Positions 35,358 to 40,955 of a DNA stretch of 64,000 nucleotides are shown piece by piece. The position numbers and the translations under genes are program-made. Source of the DNA: Spirochaetia bacterium. Lineage in GTDB: Bacteria > Spirochaetota > Spirochaetia > UBA9216. How positions within the stretch are numbered: position 1 is the stretch's first letter; every line of letters starts with the position of its first letter. The stretch is from assembly GCA_965140585.1 (NCBI GenBank), contig OZ223269.1, positions 128,001 to 192,000 on the forward strand, in the 5' to 3' direction. The notes below the pieces were generated by a model, which was given only the letters and a program-made list of their open reading frames with translations, did not search any database and was not told the origin of the DNA.

Positions 35358-36765
35358 CCATTAACCTGAACTTAAGCTCAGCTAGATTATCGGACAAAGA
35401 TACCTTATAAATGTGCGGATTTATTAATCTTTTGAAAGTTCTGTCCAGAAATTTAAGATCTTTTATCACTTTTTCCCGAATTTCAGGAAGTTCGGGATTT
35501 TTCAGGCATACTCTGCCGTTTTCAAGCCGCTTTTTGAGCATTGGCACAATTGACCCGTAATCAGCCACAGTCATCGATTTATACCGGTACATAGGGTGGT
35601 TAAAACGGTATTTTCTGTCATCCGAGATATCCTCTTCATGCAGACTTATCAGGTCGGCAATGGGGACATTTCGTTTATCATAAAACCGGTAAAGCTGTTT
35701 TATTCCGGGATTTGTCGTTTTTTCAGGATTATTTGAAAGCTTGATCGTCGGGATAAGTTCTCCATGCTGTTCTCTGGCAACAAGTTTATAGACACCGGTT
35801 AGAGATGAATCTTCGCCTCCGGTTACTAGCTGGGTTCCGACTCCCCATGAATTGATGGGGGCACCGTTTGTTACAAGTTCACGGACTATGTGTTCATTAA
35901 GATCATTTGAAACTGCGATTATTGCATCCTTCAGTCCGGCAGCATCAAGTTTTTCACGGACACGTTCACTAAGGTACTGAAGGTCTCCGCTGTCCAGGCG
36001 GACTCCGAAGTTTTTACCCTGATCCTGAAGTTCTTTTCCGACAATGATTGCGTTTTCTATACCGCTTCCTAAAGTGTCATAGGTATCAATCAGAAGAATT
36101 ACCTTATTAGGATACAGCTCAGCGTAGGCCCTGAAGGCTTCAAGTTCAGATTCGAATGCCATTACCCAGGAATGAGCCATGGTGCCGGTTACTGGAATTC
36201 CGTACTGTCTGCCGGCGAAGGTGTTTGATGTAGCAGTTGCTCCGCCTATAAAAGCCGCCCTTGCCGCTGATAATGAACCGTCCACACCCTGAGCGCGTCT
36301 GAGTCCGAATTCCATTATATTCCCTCCGCCGCTGGCGTTGTAAATCCTGGAACTCTTTGTTGCGATAAGGGTTTGAAAATTAACCGTGTTGAGAAGCATG
36401 CTTTCAATAAGCTGGGCCTCTATAAGGTTTGCCCGTACCGATATAAGCGGTTCATTGGGAAATACTATGGAGCCTTCATCAACTGCTGAAAGCTCACCTG
36501 TGAATCTGAAGTCCTTCAGAAAGTACAGAAAATCCTCGCCGAAGGTTCCCAGGGTTCTGAGGTATTCGATATCGTGTTTTGAGAATTGAAGTGAAGCAAG
36601 CCTGTCAACCAGATTACCAAGTCCGGCAAAAACCGAATACCCGCCCTGAAAAGGATTTTTTCTGAAAAACATCTCGAAGGCGACCTGCGGATTTCTATCC
36701 TGCAGGAAGTACCCCTGCATCATTGTCAGCTCATAAAGGTCGGTTAACAGGGCTGATTTATACAT
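35326..36765 (-). CDS. pncB: nicotinate phosphoribosyltransferase
   Basis: LLTDLYELTM, EFGLRRAQ, GTMAHSW, DTYD, VRLDSGD. Confidence 0.95.
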   Translation of the reverse strand: MYKSALLTDLYELTMMQGYFLQDRNPQVAFEMFFRKNPFQGGYSVFAGLGNLVDRLASLQFSKHDIEYLRTLGTFGEDFLYFLKDFRFTGELSAVDEGSIVFPNEPLISVRANLIEAQLIESMLLNTVNFQTLIATKSSRIYNASGGGNIMEFGLRRAQGVDGSLSAARAAFIGGATATSNTFAGRQYGIPVTGTMAHSWVMAFESELEAFRAYAELYPNKVILLIDTYDTLGSGIENAIIVGKELQDQGKNFGVRLDSGDLQYLSERVREKLDAAGLKDAIIAVSNDLNEHIVRELVTNGAPINSWGVGTQLVTGGEDSSLTGVYKLVAREQHGELIPTIKLSNNPEKTTNPGIKQLYRFYDKRNVPIADLISLHEEDISDDRKYRFNHPMYRYKSMTVADYGSIVPMLKKRLENGRVCLKNPELPEIREKVIKDLKFLDRTFKRLINPHIYKVSLSDNLAELKFRLMDEKTENNGGN

Positions 36766-38039
36766 TATTTCCTGCTTATCTTATCAAAACCGGTATAAGG
36801 CACAAGTTTTTCAGGAATTCTGATTGAACCGTCTTCCTGCTGGAAGTTTTCAAGGATGGCTACTATGGCTCTTGAGACGGCAATAGCTGTTCCGTTGAGC
36901 ATATGAACATGTTTGTTTTTGTCTCCGTCCCTGTAGCGTATACCGAGCCTTCTTGCCTGGTAATCGGTACAGTTTGAAGTACTTGTAACCTCTCCCCATT
37001 CTCCGTCTTCACCACGGCCGGGCATCCATGCTTCAAGGTCGTATTTCCTGTAGGCAGGTGCTCCAAGGTCTCCGGTACATGTATCTACAACCCGGAATGG
37101 AATCTCAAGGCTGCTGAATATTTCTTCTTCAATGGCTCGCAGTTCCTGATGGTACTGTTCTGATTCTTCAGGTTTACAGAAGATGAACATCTCAACCTTT
37201 GAAAACTGGTGTACCCTGTACAGTCCCTTTGAATACTGTCCGGCACCGCCTGCTTCACGTCTGAAACAGTGCGATAAACCCGCCATTTTAATGGGCATTT
37301 TTTCAGTATCGAGGATTTCGTTGGAGTAGTATCCTCCGAGTGTAATTTCGGCTGTACCGACAAGACAGGTCCCTGTTCCTTCAAGGTTATATATATTTGA
37401 TTCTGCACCTCTGGGGTTGAATCCGATACCTTCAAGGACTTCCTCTTTGGCTATATCCGGAGTGATAGTAGGTGTAAATCCTTTTTTAACAAGGATATCG
37501 AGTGCATACCTGCTGAGGGCAAGTTCAAGCATTACTGCTTCATTCTTAAGGTAGTAGAATTTAGGTCCGGTTACCTTGGCTGCAGTATCGAAATCGATAA
37601 GATCAAGTTCCGCACCTATTTCAACATGATCTTTCGGTTTGAAACTGAATTGCGGAACAGTTCCAACACGCTTGATTTCAAGGTTGTCCTTATCTTCCTT
37701 ACCAACCGGAGCATCAGGATGAGCCATGTTCGGAACTTTGGCTGCTTCAGTGTTAAGTTCAGTTTCAACAGAACCAAGCTCGCCTTCAACAGATGCAATC
37801 TGTTCCTTAAGCTTCTTACCTTCTTCAATAAGGGTATTCCGCTCATTCTGCTCAAGTTTGCCCTTCATCTTTTTAGCGTTTTCATTACGCTGCTGTCTGA
37901 GGGTGTCTGCCTCAATGATCAGCTGATTCCGGCGGTCATATAATTCAATAACGCGGTCAACATCCACTTCCATAAAGCGGTTTTTTACGTTCGCCTTTAC
38001 CGCGTCGGCGTTTTCTTTGATAAATCGTAAGTCCAGCAT
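36765..38039 (-). CDS. serS: serine--tRNA ligase
   Basis: MLD..., GTAE, FRREAG, RVHQFSKVE, SNCTDYQARRL, LNGT. Confidence 0.97.
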   Translation of the reverse strand: MLDLRFIKENADAVKANVKNRFMEVDVDRVIELYDRRNQLIIEADTLRQQRNENAKKMKGKLEQNERNTLIEEGKKLKEQIASVEGELGSVETELNTEAAKVPNMAHPDAPVGKEDKDNLEIKRVGTVPQFSFKPKDHVEIGAELDLIDFDTAAKVTGPKFYYLKNEAVMLELALSRYALDILVKKGFTPTITPDIAKEEVLEGIGFNPRGAESNIYNLEGTGTCLVGTAEITLGGYYSNEILDTEKMPIKMAGLSHCFRREAGGAGQYSKGLYRVHQFSKVEMFIFCKPEESEQYHQELRAIEEEIFSSLEIPFRVVDTCTGDLGAPAYRKYDLEAWMPGRGEDGEWGEVTSTSNCTDYQARRLGIRYRDGDKNKHVHMLNGTAIAVSRAIVAILENFQQEDGSIRIPEKLVPYTGFDKISRK

Positions 38040-38113: not shown

Positions 38114-38146
38114 TGTTGATAAAAGCAACAGTTGACAATAGCAACT
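38114..38146. promoter_or_regulatory. tandem palindromic operators GTTG-N7-CAAC over the -35 of marR-hgcAB
   Basis: TGTTGATAAAAGCAACA at 38114-38130 and AGTTGACAATAGCAACT at 38130-38146; TTGACA at 38132. Confidence 0.75.
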
Positions 38147-38167
38147 AAAAGTGCATATATGAAATCC

Positions 38168-38632
38168 ATGGAATCAAATTATGATATCAGAGCTTTCAGA
38201 CACGATTTGAGACGTCTTGAACGTTTTCTTGTAACAAATCTGAAGAGTAATTCAAGCTGCTGCGGTGTAACTTTCAACGAATGCCATATTCTTCTAAGGG
38301 TTGAAGAGGCAGGTGACATTACAATTTCGGATATTGTTGATTATCTTGGAGTAGATAAATCGGTGGTTTCAAGAACTGTTGATGCGCTTGTAAAGAAAAA
38401 CTGGCTTTTAAGAAATGAATCCATCTCTGACAGAAGAACAAGCACCGTTTCTCTTAGTGATGATGGAAAGATTTTTCTGAAAGGATTGAACAGTCAGTGT
38501 GACGATTTTTACATGCCGGTACTTGAAAATATCTCATCTGATAAATTAATTACTGTTATCGATGCCGTAGCAGCACTTTGTGATGCCTTTGAGTCTGCTG
38601 AAATCGACAGGAGCTGCACATGCCGGAAGTAA
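38168..38632 (+). CDS. Cys-rich MarR-family regulator
   Basis: SSCCGVTFNECH, HTH LGVDKSVVSRTVDALV, DRR wing, C-terminal CTC. Start taken at ATG 38168 (or 38159); the TTG used by the ORF track is the -35 box. Confidence 0.88.
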   Translation: MESNYDIRAFRHDLRRLERFLVTNLKSNSSCCGVTFNECHILLRVEEAGDITISDIVDYLGVDKSVVSRTVDALVKKNWLLRNESISDRRTSTVSLSDDGKIFLKGLNSQCDDFYMPVLENISSDKLITVIDAVAALCDAFESAEIDRSCTCRK

Positions 38633-39615
38633 TACAAATCAGCAGTGATATAACTGCTGGAGATATCATCGACAGAATCAGATACCGTCTTGGCATCGGA
38701 AGAATGAAACTGAAGGTTGAGCCCGGGCTGTATTCTCTTAACAAGCCGGATGAGACCTCTCCTGTACTTGTGACTGCCAATCTTAAAGTTCCCCTTGATA
38801 TTCTACGGAAAAACTTAAAAGAGAGGGCTGCATGGATTCTTGTTCTTGATACGATGGGAGTCAACGTCTGGTGTGCTGCAGGAAAGGGCACCTTCGGAAC
38901 CGAAGAATTGATTCACAGGGTTCAGACAGCAGGATTGAAAGAGTTTGTGAAACATAAAAAACTTATAGTGCCTCAGCTCGGTGCACCTGGGGTGAAGGCT
39001 GTTGCCGTTCAGCGTACTACAGGCTTTCGGGTTTTCTTCGGGCCGGTTGCAGCAGCGGATCTGCCGGCTTACCTTGATAATAGTTTAAAGTGTGACGCGG
39101 ATATGCGCCTTAAAAAGTTCCCCTTATCAGAACGGGCTGAACTGGTACCGCTTCAGCTGATTCAGAGCTGGAAGATATTTCTCGGCGTTGCAGCACTTGT
39201 GCTGCTAAGAGAAGCTGCGTCAAAGGGGATTACAGGCATTAATCCTTCGGCAGTGATCATACCGGCACTGATAACAGTAATCTCAGGTGCCGTTCTTACT
39301 CCACTGCTGCTGCCTATTCTGCCCGGAAGAGCATTTTCTGTAAAAGGGGCAGTATCCGGATTTGTAGTCTCTCTGGCTGTTTTCGGTTTCCTTCCTTCAG
39401 AGCTGAGCATTCCTGCGATTATGCAGAATATTGTACTGGCTGCAGCCGGTTCATCGTTTATCGGGATGTGGTTTACAGGCTCATCAACCTTCACATCATT
39501 GTCAGGGGTTAAAAAGGAAATGAAAATTGCTGTGCCTGTTCAAATTACTTTTGCCGGACTGTCCCTGGTTCTGGGGATACTTCCGTCAATACTGCAGAAG
39601 GCGGGTATTTTATGA
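38620..39615 (+). CDS. hgcA: mercury methylation corrinoid protein HgcA
   Basis: Diagnostic cap-helix NVWCAAGK (GVNVWCAAGKGTFG), PQLGAPGV, C-terminal TM helices, FTGSSTFTSLSGVKKEM. Confidence 0.95.
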   Translation: MPEVIQISSDITAGDIIDRIRYRLGIGRMKLKVEPGLYSLNKPDETSPVLVTANLKVPLDILRKNLKERAAWILVLDTMGVNVWCAAGKGTFGTEELIHRVQTAGLKEFVKHKKLIVPQLGAPGVKAVAVQRTTGFRVFFGPVAAADLPAYLDNSLKCDADMRLKKFPLSERAELVPLQLIQSWKIFLGVAALVLLREAASKGITGINPSAVIIPALITVISGAVLTPLLLPILPGRAFSVKGAVSGFVVSLAVFGFLPSELSIPAIMQNIVLAAAGSSFIGMWFTGSSTFTSLSGVKKEMKIAVPVQITFAGLSLVLGILPSILQKAGIL

Positions 39616-39920
39616 AATATTTAAGAAATACAGCAACTATCAAAATCGATTTGCAGAAGTGCACCGGATGTTTAATGTGCATAGAGGTTTGTCCTCATGC
39701 TGTTTTTACAGAGGATGGAAGAAAGGTACGTATCAATGATTCAGATTCCTGTATGGAATGCGGAGCCTGTGTTCTCAACTGTTCGTTCAAGGCTCTTTCG
39801 GTCGATAAGGGGGTCGGATGTGCCGAAGCAGTGTTAAACAGCATGATTAAAGGCGGCGAACCATCATGTGACTGCGGGCCATCCTGCAGCGGTGAAGGTG
39901 GAAAATCTTCCTGCTGCTGA
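39612..39920 (+). CDS. hgcB: mercury methylation ferredoxin HgcB
   Basis: CTGCLMCIEVCPH, CMECGAC, GVGCA and terminal CC; ATGA overlap with hgcA. Confidence 0.95.
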   Translation: MKYLRNTATIKIDLQKCTGCLMCIEVCPHAVFTEDGRKVRINDSDSCMECGACVLNCSFKALSVDKGVGCAEAVLNSMIKGGEPSCDCGPSCSGEGGKSSCC

Positions 39921-39922
39921 TA

Positions 39923-40363
39923 TTATTCAGCTGCAGGAAGGCTGCCTGGAAGCTGTTCGATCCAGGCCTTTATTTCATCTCTTACCCTTCGGTAATGTGA
40001 GATGGCTTCTTCTTCGGTTTTGGCAGTTTTAGCCAGGGCAGGCGGATCGTCAAAGCCTGCATGAACACGGGTTGTTTTTCCGGGAAAGTATGGGCAGGTC
40101 TCGGCTGCATGTCCGCAGACTGTTACAACATAGTCGAAACTCTGACCGGCTTCTATCATCTCATTAACATTCTTGCTTTTGTGGCCTGATATGTCGATTC
40201 CTGCCTCACCCATCACCTTTACAGCATTGGGGTTTAATCCGTGTGTTTCTATTCCGGCTGAATAGACTTCAAAAATATCTCCCTTAAGAGCTTTGCACCA
40301 GCCTTCGGCCATCTGGCTCCTGCAGGAATTTCCTGTACATAGAAAAAGGATGCTTTTCTTCAT
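39923..40363 (-). CDS. arsC: arsenate reductase (thioredoxin-type, LMW-PTP fold)
   Basis: [17 protein letters not shown]...CP, FDDP, VRDEI. Confidence 0.92.
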
Positions 40364-40475: not shown

Positions 40476-40955
40476 TTGTATATGTCTGATTCAGATAACA
40501 ACAGACCAAGCCTGAATGCTGTAATAGAAAGCCTCGGGCTTGAACCACTGCCTGTTGAAGGCGGGTACTTCAGAAGTACCTACCTGACACAGAACTCTTC
40601 GGCAATTTATTACCTCATTACACCCGATTCCTGGTCGGCCTTTCACAGGCTCAGCTCGGATGAGGTGTGGCATTTTTATGCAGGAGACCCTGCAAGGCAG
40701 CTGCAGATATTTCCGGATAGAAGTCATAAAATATTCAGAATCGGGCGGAATTTCAGTGAAGGCGAGGTTCCCCAGCTGCTCAGTCCTGCAGGAGTATGGC
40801 AGTCAACACGTCTGGAAGCTGAGGGTAAATGGGCTCTTTTCGGTACGACAATGGCGCCTCCCTATTCGAATGAACAATACGATCACGGTGAACAGAATAC
40901 TCTTTCATCGATGTACCCGGAGCTATCTGATATTATCCGTGAATTTTTGGAATAA
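40476..40955 (+). CDS. cupin_5 (DUF985) protein
   Basis: EGGYFR, SAIYYL, FHRL.SDEVWHFYAG, PAGVWQ. Confidence 0.88.
   Translation: MYMSDSDNNRPSLNAVIESLGLEPLPVEGGYFRSTYLTQNSSAIYYLITPDSWSAFHRLSSDEVWHFYAGDPARQLQIFPDRSHKIFRIGRNFSEGEVPQLLSPAGVWQSTRLEAEGKWALFGTTMAPPYSNEQYDHGEQNTLSSMYPELSDIIREFLE

Follow-up and report, generated by a model that had tools for sequence, protein, structure and literature searches.

What controls the mercury-methylation gene pair hgcAB, and does its regulator answer to mercury or to an arsenic-type metalloid? A locus in a Spirochaetia bacterium raises this question, as hgcA and hgcB are headed there by a gene for a cysteine-bearing regulator of the MarR family and faced by a gene for an arsenate reductase, arsC. 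The locus lies in a stretch of 64,000 nucleotides, here called the window (assembly GCA_965140585.1, contig OZ223269.1, positions 128,001 to 192,000), which is part of a 4.85-Mb Spirochaetota genome that is 98.5% complete. A previous interpretation of this DNA, referred to below as the sequence-only reading, had proposed that hgcAB is derepressed by a thiol-reactive metalloid or metal acting through MarR instead of ArsR, in support of an arsenic-related native function. Taken as a whole, that interpretation is partly supported by our analysis. The best explanation, to which we assign a probability of about 0.62, is that the MarR is a predicted autorepressor of marR-hgcAB that is released by a metalloid. 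The parts of this statement differ in strength: judged from the DNA and protein sequences, autorepression of the operon through two upstream boxes is very probable, and an As(III)-type metalloid as the signal is somewhat better than an even bet. The three genes of the proposed operon are as follows.

38168-38632, plus strand: marR, 154 amino acids, a Cys-bearing regulator of the MarR_ars type, with alternative starts at TTG 38132 (166-amino-acid open reading frame) and ATG 38159.
38620-39615, plus strand: hgcA, encoding a 331-amino-acid corrinoid protein with Cys85 in NVWCAAGK.
39612-39920, plus strand: hgcB, encoding a 102-amino-acid ferredoxin with two [4Fe-4S] clusters and a C-terminal CC.

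The hallmark of HgcA is a cap-helix motif, N(V/I)WCA(A/G)GK, which holds the Co-ligating Cys and is followed by a membrane domain. In the window protein, residues 82-89 read NVWCAAGK and the C-terminal half is hydrophobic, with stretches between residues 178 and 331. The sequence-only reading had called both proteins intact from NVWCAAGK, CMECGAC and the terminal CC, all of which are present, and had named a HgcA hidden Markov model as a check; HgcA scored 381.1 bits against the NCBIfam equivalog NF040863 (cut-off 275), with profile positions 1-322 of 325 covered. HgcB likewise passed its equivalog cut-off (NF040864, 112.2 bits against 99), and carries two CX2CX2CX3C motifs, CTGCLMCIEVC at residue 17 and CMECGACVLNC at residue 47, along with Cys70 and the CC pair at residues 101-102. 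Because the pair is genuine and intact, the organism is a candidate mercury methylator, as had been proposed. The overlaps between the genes also agreed with the earlier description, being 13 nt between marR and hgcA (38620-38632) and 4 nt between hgcA and hgcB (39612-39615), and an AGGAG sequence lies 7 nt 5' of the hgcA ATG, within marR.

The regulator ahead of hgcAB is a Cys-based MarR and not an ArsR, in agreement with the sequence-only reading; it scored 49.5 bits against the Pfam MarR family (PF01047, cut-off 24.6). Its start is probably ATG 38168, which is retained in the sister genome, because TTG 38132 sits in one of the operator boxes described below and the sister genome has ATT in place of ATG 38159. 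Numbered from this start, the cysteines fall at positions 31, 32, 39, 111, 138, 150 and 152 and the protein ends in CTCRK, so that the CC pair, further Cys residues and terminal CTC noted earlier are all in place. Among nine aligned spirochaete MarRs, a C-C-G-x5-C-H signature is invariant ahead of the DNA-binding domain, and the C-terminus has CC or CxC. For a wider comparison, we assembled a first set of loci with the pattern CCG[VL][TS]x[NSA][EQ]CH, which matched 298 stretches with 288 MarR relatives, and kept the best 80. Across 77 aligned relatives, whose rows were chosen by the CCG..CH motif, C31, C32, G33, C39 and H40 were invariant and C150 was nearly so. The C-terminal cysteines lie outside that selection, and at least one was found in the last 30 amino acids in 75 of the 80 loci, with CC or CxC in 63.

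An AlphaFold2 model of the MarR (mean predicted local distance difference test score 90) has six helices and a beta wing, and places C31, C32 and G33 in the loop that joins helix 1 (residues 7-28) to helix 2 (36-48), C39 and H40 in the opening turn of helix 2, and C150 and C152 in a flexible tail beyond helix 6 (127-147). Both this model and the 77-row alignment were made without L018, L035, L040 and L087, which were, variously, almost identical to the window, mis-called at their ends or duplicated. Matches among solved structures were generic MarRs only (best relatives 2eth and 3s2w), the top three alignments begin past the CCG motif, and no structural template for the CCG sensor site was found among these matches.

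Linkage of this MarR type to hgcAB extends well beyond the window. The first set spans Spirochaetota, Verrucomicrobiota, Myxococcota, Bacillota, Chloroflexota, Acidobacteriota, Calditrichota, KSB1, 'delta proteobacteria' and one metagenome-assembled genome (MAG) of Bathyarchaeota. A survey of marR-hgcAB synteny, which the sequence-only reading had suggested, found hgcA directly downstream of marR in 74 of the 80 loci, with hgcB also present in 73; contig ends cut hgcA in L049 and stop the sequence 84 nt past marR in L022. A search with the MarR alone in one genome per species gave 5 relatives, each followed by hgcAB. In 5 of the 80 loci the downstream gene was neither hgcA nor lost to a contig end. 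One of these, L091 (Clostridia), has arsM there (NF008823, 317 bits, cut-off 263); marR is followed by a methyltransferase, arsR and acr3 in L096 (Bacillota MAG) and by an unrelated gene in L067 (Anaeromyxobacter). In two Chloroflexota loci (L078 and L095), the gene headed by this Cys-motif MarR, with its tandem operator, encodes a 900-amino-acid LuxR/MalT-like regulator, an arrangement that could be a regulatory cascade. The Bathyarchaeota locus (L035), the only archaeal record of the 80, has an hgcA after marR that matches in three pieces in different frames, the result of a frameshift in the gene or of a faulty assembly.

Within the phylum of the window, the presence of hgcAB in which we take to be already known, the linkage is almost exclusive. 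Among 41 relative genomes, the MarR profile scored 188-218 bits in only 5, all of them among the 9 with HgcA over cut-off, and the next score was 72 bits. Expanding to 401 Spirochaetota genomes, HgcA exceeded its cut-off in 78 and the MarR was matched (E <= 1e-25) in 29. In 28 of these 29, the genome also has hgcA and the MarR gene stands directly upstream of it on the same contig and strand, as judged by comparing coordinates by eye; the exception (G265) is a variant with a single Cys beside an unrelated gene. The 28 of 78 genomes imply that about 36% of the sampled hgcA-bearing spirochaetes use this MarR, although these genomes are related to one another and the counts are not independent events. 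We also inspected seven spirochaete hgcAB loci that lack the MarR: an ArsR-like gene stands after hgcB in two and before hgcA in two, arsR and acr3 precede hgcA in one, another has one small gene of unclear kind, and the last has no such gene. In L107 (Spirochaetota genome G119), hgcA lies directly after acr3 with a divergent arsR. The gene that comes after hgcB in L103 and L104 encodes an ArsR-like protein with CC at its C-terminus, and the HgcA of these two loci is extended at the N-terminus by about 70 amino acids that include Cys.

Two tandem dyads upstream of marR, identified by sequence, are the putative binding sites of the regulator.

38115-38129, no strand assigned: candidate operator box 1, GTTGATAAAAGCAAC, a GTTG-N7-CAAC dyad.
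38131-38145, no strand assigned: candidate operator box 2, GTTGACAATAGCAAC, 16 bp after box 1 and holding a TTGACA -35-like hexamer (38132-38137).
38155-38161, plus strand: candidate -10 element (ATATAT/TATATG), 17-18 nt after TTGACA.

Within 150 nt upstream of marR, GTTG-N7-CAAC with at most one mismatch was found in 50 of the 80 first-set loci and the exact box in 21, and exact boxes reach a density of 2.1 per kb upstream of marR versus 0.002 per kb in the remainder of the same loci. Across loci, 16 of the 17 pairs of adjacent boxes have a spacing of 16 bp and the remaining pair one of 32 bp. In the 4.85-Mb genome, the pair before marR is the sole tandem one, and single exact boxes number 56, against roughly 74 expected by chance; the predicted MarR regulon therefore consists of marR-hgcAB alone and leaves arsC outside. 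The candidate -10 element is so close to ATG 38168, which begins 7-8 nt past the TA-rich hexamer, that the marR mRNA is probably leaderless or near-leaderless. The counterpart in the sister genome, TTGACA-N18-TATATT, is a better promoter match.

The signal to which such a regulator would respond is suggested by the genes that its relatives control. We assembled a second set with a helix-turn-helix pattern and no selection for Cys, which gave 247 relatives, and again kept the best 80. The gene directly downstream of marR was arsM in 40 of these loci, arsN1 in 12, arsN2 in 3 and hgcA in 12, with another methyltransferase in 3 and some other gene or none in 10. CCG..CH was present in 56 of the 80, with CC..CH variants in most others, and the exact box was found in 60 (73 when one mismatch was allowed). 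The box consensus was GTTGTATAATACAAC for 76 hgc-linked boxes versus GTTGCAAAATACAAC for 65 ars-linked boxes, and the two agree at the unconstrained inner positions too. Further afield, the window MarR is 26.8-29.1% identical (E 1e-12 to 4e-11) to arsN-linked MarRs on Deinococcus plasmids; two of the plasmid marR genes, among the best plasmid matches, lie between arsN1 and arsN2. These plasmid proteins have the C(C)G...C positions and a C-terminal Cys, and each of their genes has two GTTG-N7-CAAC boxes.

On a FastTree phylogeny of 154 MarRs, made after removal of 3 rows because of their length or a stop, 82 rows carry the label 'heads hgcAB' and 57 the label 'heads arsM/arsN', and these labels require at least 4 changes, 3 of which are forced by well-supported branches. 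On an IQ-TREE phylogeny rooted on Deinococcus, one clade holds 72 first-set rows with an hgc link and 4 labelled 'other'. The predicted sensor and putative operator are thus common to both contexts, with the target exchanged several times. Among individual loci, three from Clostridia/Christensenella with arsM-linked MarRs (L168, L183 and L189) keep the CC pair and a C-terminal CCxxC and have N-R in place of C-H; these are natural variants for asking whether C39 and H40 are needed. In L170 (Bacillota MAG), the order downstream of marR by tblastn is hgcA, an Acr3-like gene and hgcB, so that a gene of the arsenite-efflux type seems to be inserted between hgcA and hgcB. In L163, marR-hgcAB is flanked upstream by acr3 and arsC and downstream by arsN1.

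The closest characterized regulator is AdMarR_ars of Achromobacter deleyi As-55, whose description in the preprint text bears out the statement of the sequence-only reading that Cys-containing MarRs controlling arsenic genes exist: it represses arsV and its own gene, binds both promoters, and leaves the DNA with As(III) or Sb(III), for which the conserved Cys36, Cys37 and Cys157 are needed (Yu 2021, 10.1101/2021.08.12.456183). By that description, it shares with the window MarR a vicinal Cys pair and C-terminal Cys (36/37/157 versus C31/C32/C150-152). The MarR_ars subfamily is placed there in ars operons or islands, heading arsV, arsN or arsP, and relatives of the window MarR head arsM, arsN1 and arsN2, the arsN position being a context that defines the subfamily; the Deinococcus plasmid MarRs share genus and gene context with a member listed in the same preprint. 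Unlike MarR_ars as so defined by its ars context, the window MarR heads hgcAB and has only a convergent arsC nearby, and its family differs from the published description in the invariant C39/H40 and the tandem GTTG-N7-CAAC operator. In the text of the preprint, its supplementary alignment aside, the terms hgc, mercury, arsM, palindrome and inverted repeat do not occur.

A second precedent, at hgcAB itself, is Pseudodesulfovibrio mercurii ND132, for which the preprint text reports that arsR2 lies directly upstream of hgcAB and is co-transcribed with it, that arsenic raises hgcAB transcription, and that an hgcAB mutant is more sensitive to As(V) and not to As(III) (Gionfriddo, 10.1101/2022.10.17.512643). 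Among the reference Desulfovibrio and Pseudodesulfovibrio genomes searched in that study, ArsR2 homologues are described only from hgc-bearing Desulfovibrionaceae (10.1101/2022.10.17.512643). The window resembles ND132 in that a Cys-bearing repressor of the metalloid type is encoded directly upstream of hgcAB. It differs in that ArsR2 belongs to the ArsR/SmtB family and has a four-Cys site, whereas the MarR type of the window spans many phyla.

We propose the following mechanism. The genes marR, hgcA and hgcB would be transcribed as a single unit that the product of its first gene represses, with a MarR dimer on the two adjacent dyads (38115-38145) overlapping TTGACA and blocking transcription. 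The thiolate sensor site would consist of the C31/C32 loop pair, C39 with H40, and the C-terminal C150/C152. A trivalent metalloid, for which our best guesses are As(III), Sb(III) or methylarsenite, could bridge C31/C32, C39 and/or the tail cysteines and release the repressor, and hgcAB would then be expressed, with translation of hgcA and hgcB coupled through the gene overlaps.

The gene facing this proposed operon and a hairpin between the two bear on how far arsenic reduction belongs to the same system.

39923-40363, minus strand: arsC, an arsenate reductase of the low-molecular-weight phosphatase, thioredoxin-coupled type, convergent with hgcB.
39906-39941, no strand assigned: hairpin, candidate bidirectional terminator, with a 14-bp stem with one mismatch and a 6-nt loop, over the hgcB and arsC stops.

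Thioredoxin-coupled ArsC proteins combine a CX5R P-loop, which holds the nucleophilic Cys, with a downstream Cys pair. The window protein has CX5R (CTGNSCR) at residue 9 and a CX6C pair at C83/C90; it scored 73.4 bits against Pfam LMWPc (cut-off 23.2) and 163.3 bits against TIGR02691, the pI258 type, just below the cut-off of 174.3. A tblastn search of the genome found no other ArsC homologue. The sequence-only reading had placed the end of arsC 2 nt from the hgcB stop with no terminator between them: the distance is correct, and the lack of a terminator holds for the 2-nt gap only, as the hairpin straddles both stops. Folding of the hairpin gave -29.4 kcal/mol on the plus strand (z -3.7, 0 of 200 shuffles as good) and -27.3 kcal/mol on the minus strand (z -5.0), where AUUUU comes after it. 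The sister genome has the identical element. Because both arms consist of coding sequence, the stem constrains the last codons of hgcB and arsC. As a candidate bidirectional terminator, it would end both convergent transcripts. The block of four genes has serS (36765-38039, minus strand) on one side and a DUF985 cupin gene (40476-40955) on the other.

Adjacency of arsC to hgcAB has its own pattern among relatives. All 10 first-set loci with arsC nearby are from Spirochaetota, and in 8 of them it is convergent and comes right after hgcB. On an HgcA tree of 73 rows, arsC adjacency requires at least 5 changes, 4 of them forced, and 0 of 500 shuffles need so few; from these changes the association is recurrent and not a one-off. 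In the lineage of the window, it is shared only with the sister genome, and the next relative (L019) is without it. The As(V) sensitivity of the ND132 hgcAB mutant would fit the reductase neighbor here, as a parallel only. Elsewhere in the genome, a generic MarR gene (135 amino acids) overlaps one for an ArsM-like methyltransferase on another contig (C7), at about 348969-351541 (L099, 2470-5041); the methyltransferase scored 199.7 bits against NF008823, under the cut-off of 263, and is followed by a radical SAM/SPASM maturase-like gene.

Several observations weigh against a metalloid-released autorepressor, or against a close tie between this operon and arsenic metabolism. We tried arsC as a member of the MarR regulon and rejected it, as there is no MarR operator at arsC; it is a separately transcribed, convergent gene, set apart from hgcB by the hairpin, and only 10 of the 80 first-set loci have an ArsC homologue within 3 kb. 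No canonical ars operon was found in the genome, in a search that did not include ArsA, ArsD, ArsP and ArsH; no Acr3 reached its cut-off there (best 87 bits versus 283), and the only permease matching the ArsB Pfam family is about 1 Mb away. The -10 element of the window is imperfect, and a promoter consensus scan of the window did not list the TTGACA-based promoter. On the IQ-TREE phylogeny, the hgc clade stands behind a long branch (1.16, Shimodaira-Hasegawa approximate likelihood-ratio test support 100), apart from two ars-linked rows, which leaves room for a change of effector in the hgc-linked MarRs. Lastly, a tri-thiolate site of the kind proposed would have affinity for soft metals too, among them Hg(II) and Cd(II).

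The latter two points lead to the alternative of Hg(II) or another soft metal as the signal for the MarR, with hgcAB induced by its own substrate in a detoxification-like response. In its favor are the thiolate-rich site, the resemblance of the CC/CxC tail to the C-terminal CC of HgcB, and the separate, strongly supported clade of hgcAB-linked MarRs. Among strains studied to date, however, hgcAB is not known to be induced by Hg. The arsM- and arsN-linked relatives have the same sensor motif and operator half-sites, and the switches between ars and hgc targets, at least three to four, are easier to explain with a constant signal. The relative that was tested, AdMarR_ars, answers As(III) as well as Sb(III), and the accessible preprint text makes no mention of Hg(II). 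We regard mercury or another soft metal as an unlikely signal.

Still less probable is a redox switch, in which the CC pair and C-terminal Cys would form disulfides, as in the two-Cys OhrR-type MarRs, and sense oxidants or electrophiles. Cys-based MarRs are often oxidation sensors, the Cu(II)-driven oxidation of Cys80 in Escherichia coli MarR is cited in the text of Yu 2021, and the host is probably an anaerobe. Yet the family neighbors are arsM, arsN, arsR, acr3 and hgcAB instead of peroxidases or thiol-repair genes, and the tested member is, by its published description, released by metalloids. We give similarly little credence to a third alternative, that the Cys3-His set holds structural or cofactor Zn or an Fe-S cluster and that the effector is, for example, S-adenosylhomocysteine or a corrinoid-related metabolite. 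It draws on the invariance of H40 beside C39 in both hgc- and arsM-linked members, on a weak NCBIfam match of the MarR to the Zn-dependent AdcR family (E 4.9e-4), and on the ArsR-like hgcAB regulator of ND132, which is described in the available text as responding to S-adenosylhomocysteine too. Among the arsN-linked Deinococcus members, however, H40 is replaced by Q, and in one of them the Cys pair is reduced to a single Cys. In addition, the C36S, C37S and C157S variants of AdMarR_ars are reported in the preprint text to be still active in a reporter while the As(III) response is lost, which speaks for a role of these cysteines in sensing and against a structural one. That the MarR is a mere neighbor of an hgcAB pair expressed constitutively from its own promoter is hardly credible: the marR-hgcA gap of about 40-290 nt in most related loci makes an internal promoter possible there, but the window genes overlap by 13 nt with AGGAG inside marR, all 28 MarR matches in hgcA-bearing genomes among the 401 adjoin hgcA, and operator-like boxes are not enriched outside the region upstream of marR.

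The arrangement can be set beside earlier accounts of hgcAB neighborhoods. The text of McDaniel 2020 (PMC7438021) describes, for 112 genomes, a 'putative transcriptional regulator' encoded immediately upstream of hgcAB, as well as arsC and acr3 flanking hgcAB, and a model for the regulator that draws on permafrost MAGs including a Myxococcales genome. Our first set includes a Myxococcales 'fen' MAG with marR-hgcAB (L025), which parallels that genome, and the regulator is probably of the same family as the window MarR; in the portion of the paper available, it has no family name, and neither a Cys motif nor an operator nor a connection with MarR_ars is described. The text of Zhang 2023 (PMC10349881) notes in a single sentence, without analysis, that two isolates have a gene of the MarR family before hgcA, and the accessible part of a 2025 paper still invokes 'alternative regulatory mechanisms' as unknown. 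The marR-hgcAB locus of the window is one more member of a widespread arrangement. In the literature searched, which did not cover the alignment figure of Yu or the figshare tables of McDaniel, we found no assignment of an hgcAB regulator to MarR_ars, and none of its CCG-x5-CH and C-terminal Cys signature, a tandem operator or interchange with arsM/arsN. What appears to be new is therefore the predicted MarR_ars-type identity of the hgcAB regulator, with its Cys signature, putative tandem operator and arsM/arsN interchange.

These findings bear on the control of hgcAB expression and on the purpose of HgcAB in mercury biogeochemistry, where ArsR2 of ND132 already points to arsenic. They would add a second, unrelated family of arsenic-type sensors, MarR_ars-like, at hgcAB across many phyla, with the same predicted sensor heading genes for arsenic methylation and resistance. 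The system offers testable handles in a 31-bp operator, six candidate ligand residues and a reporter design proven for a relative, and a CCG-x5-CH MarR beside hgcA could serve as a sequence marker for predicting metalloid-inducible methylators in metagenomes. As for the arsenic-related native function of HgcAB advanced by the sequence-only reading, we infer it tentatively from the same MarR and operator being wired to arsM/arsN or to hgcAB at least three to four times, and from the MarR-less loci with ArsR or acr3. In its broadest form, which we consider doubtful, hgcAB would be a regular output of arsenic-type metalloid sensing, and the native job of HgcAB would be metalloid handling under anoxia, with mercury methylation as a side reaction. 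If that is true, HgcAB may carry out, for example, corrinoid-dependent methylation of As(III) or Sb(III), or give protection during As(V) reduction, and exposure to arsenic or antimony, not mercury, would set the capacity to form methylmercury in many sediments.

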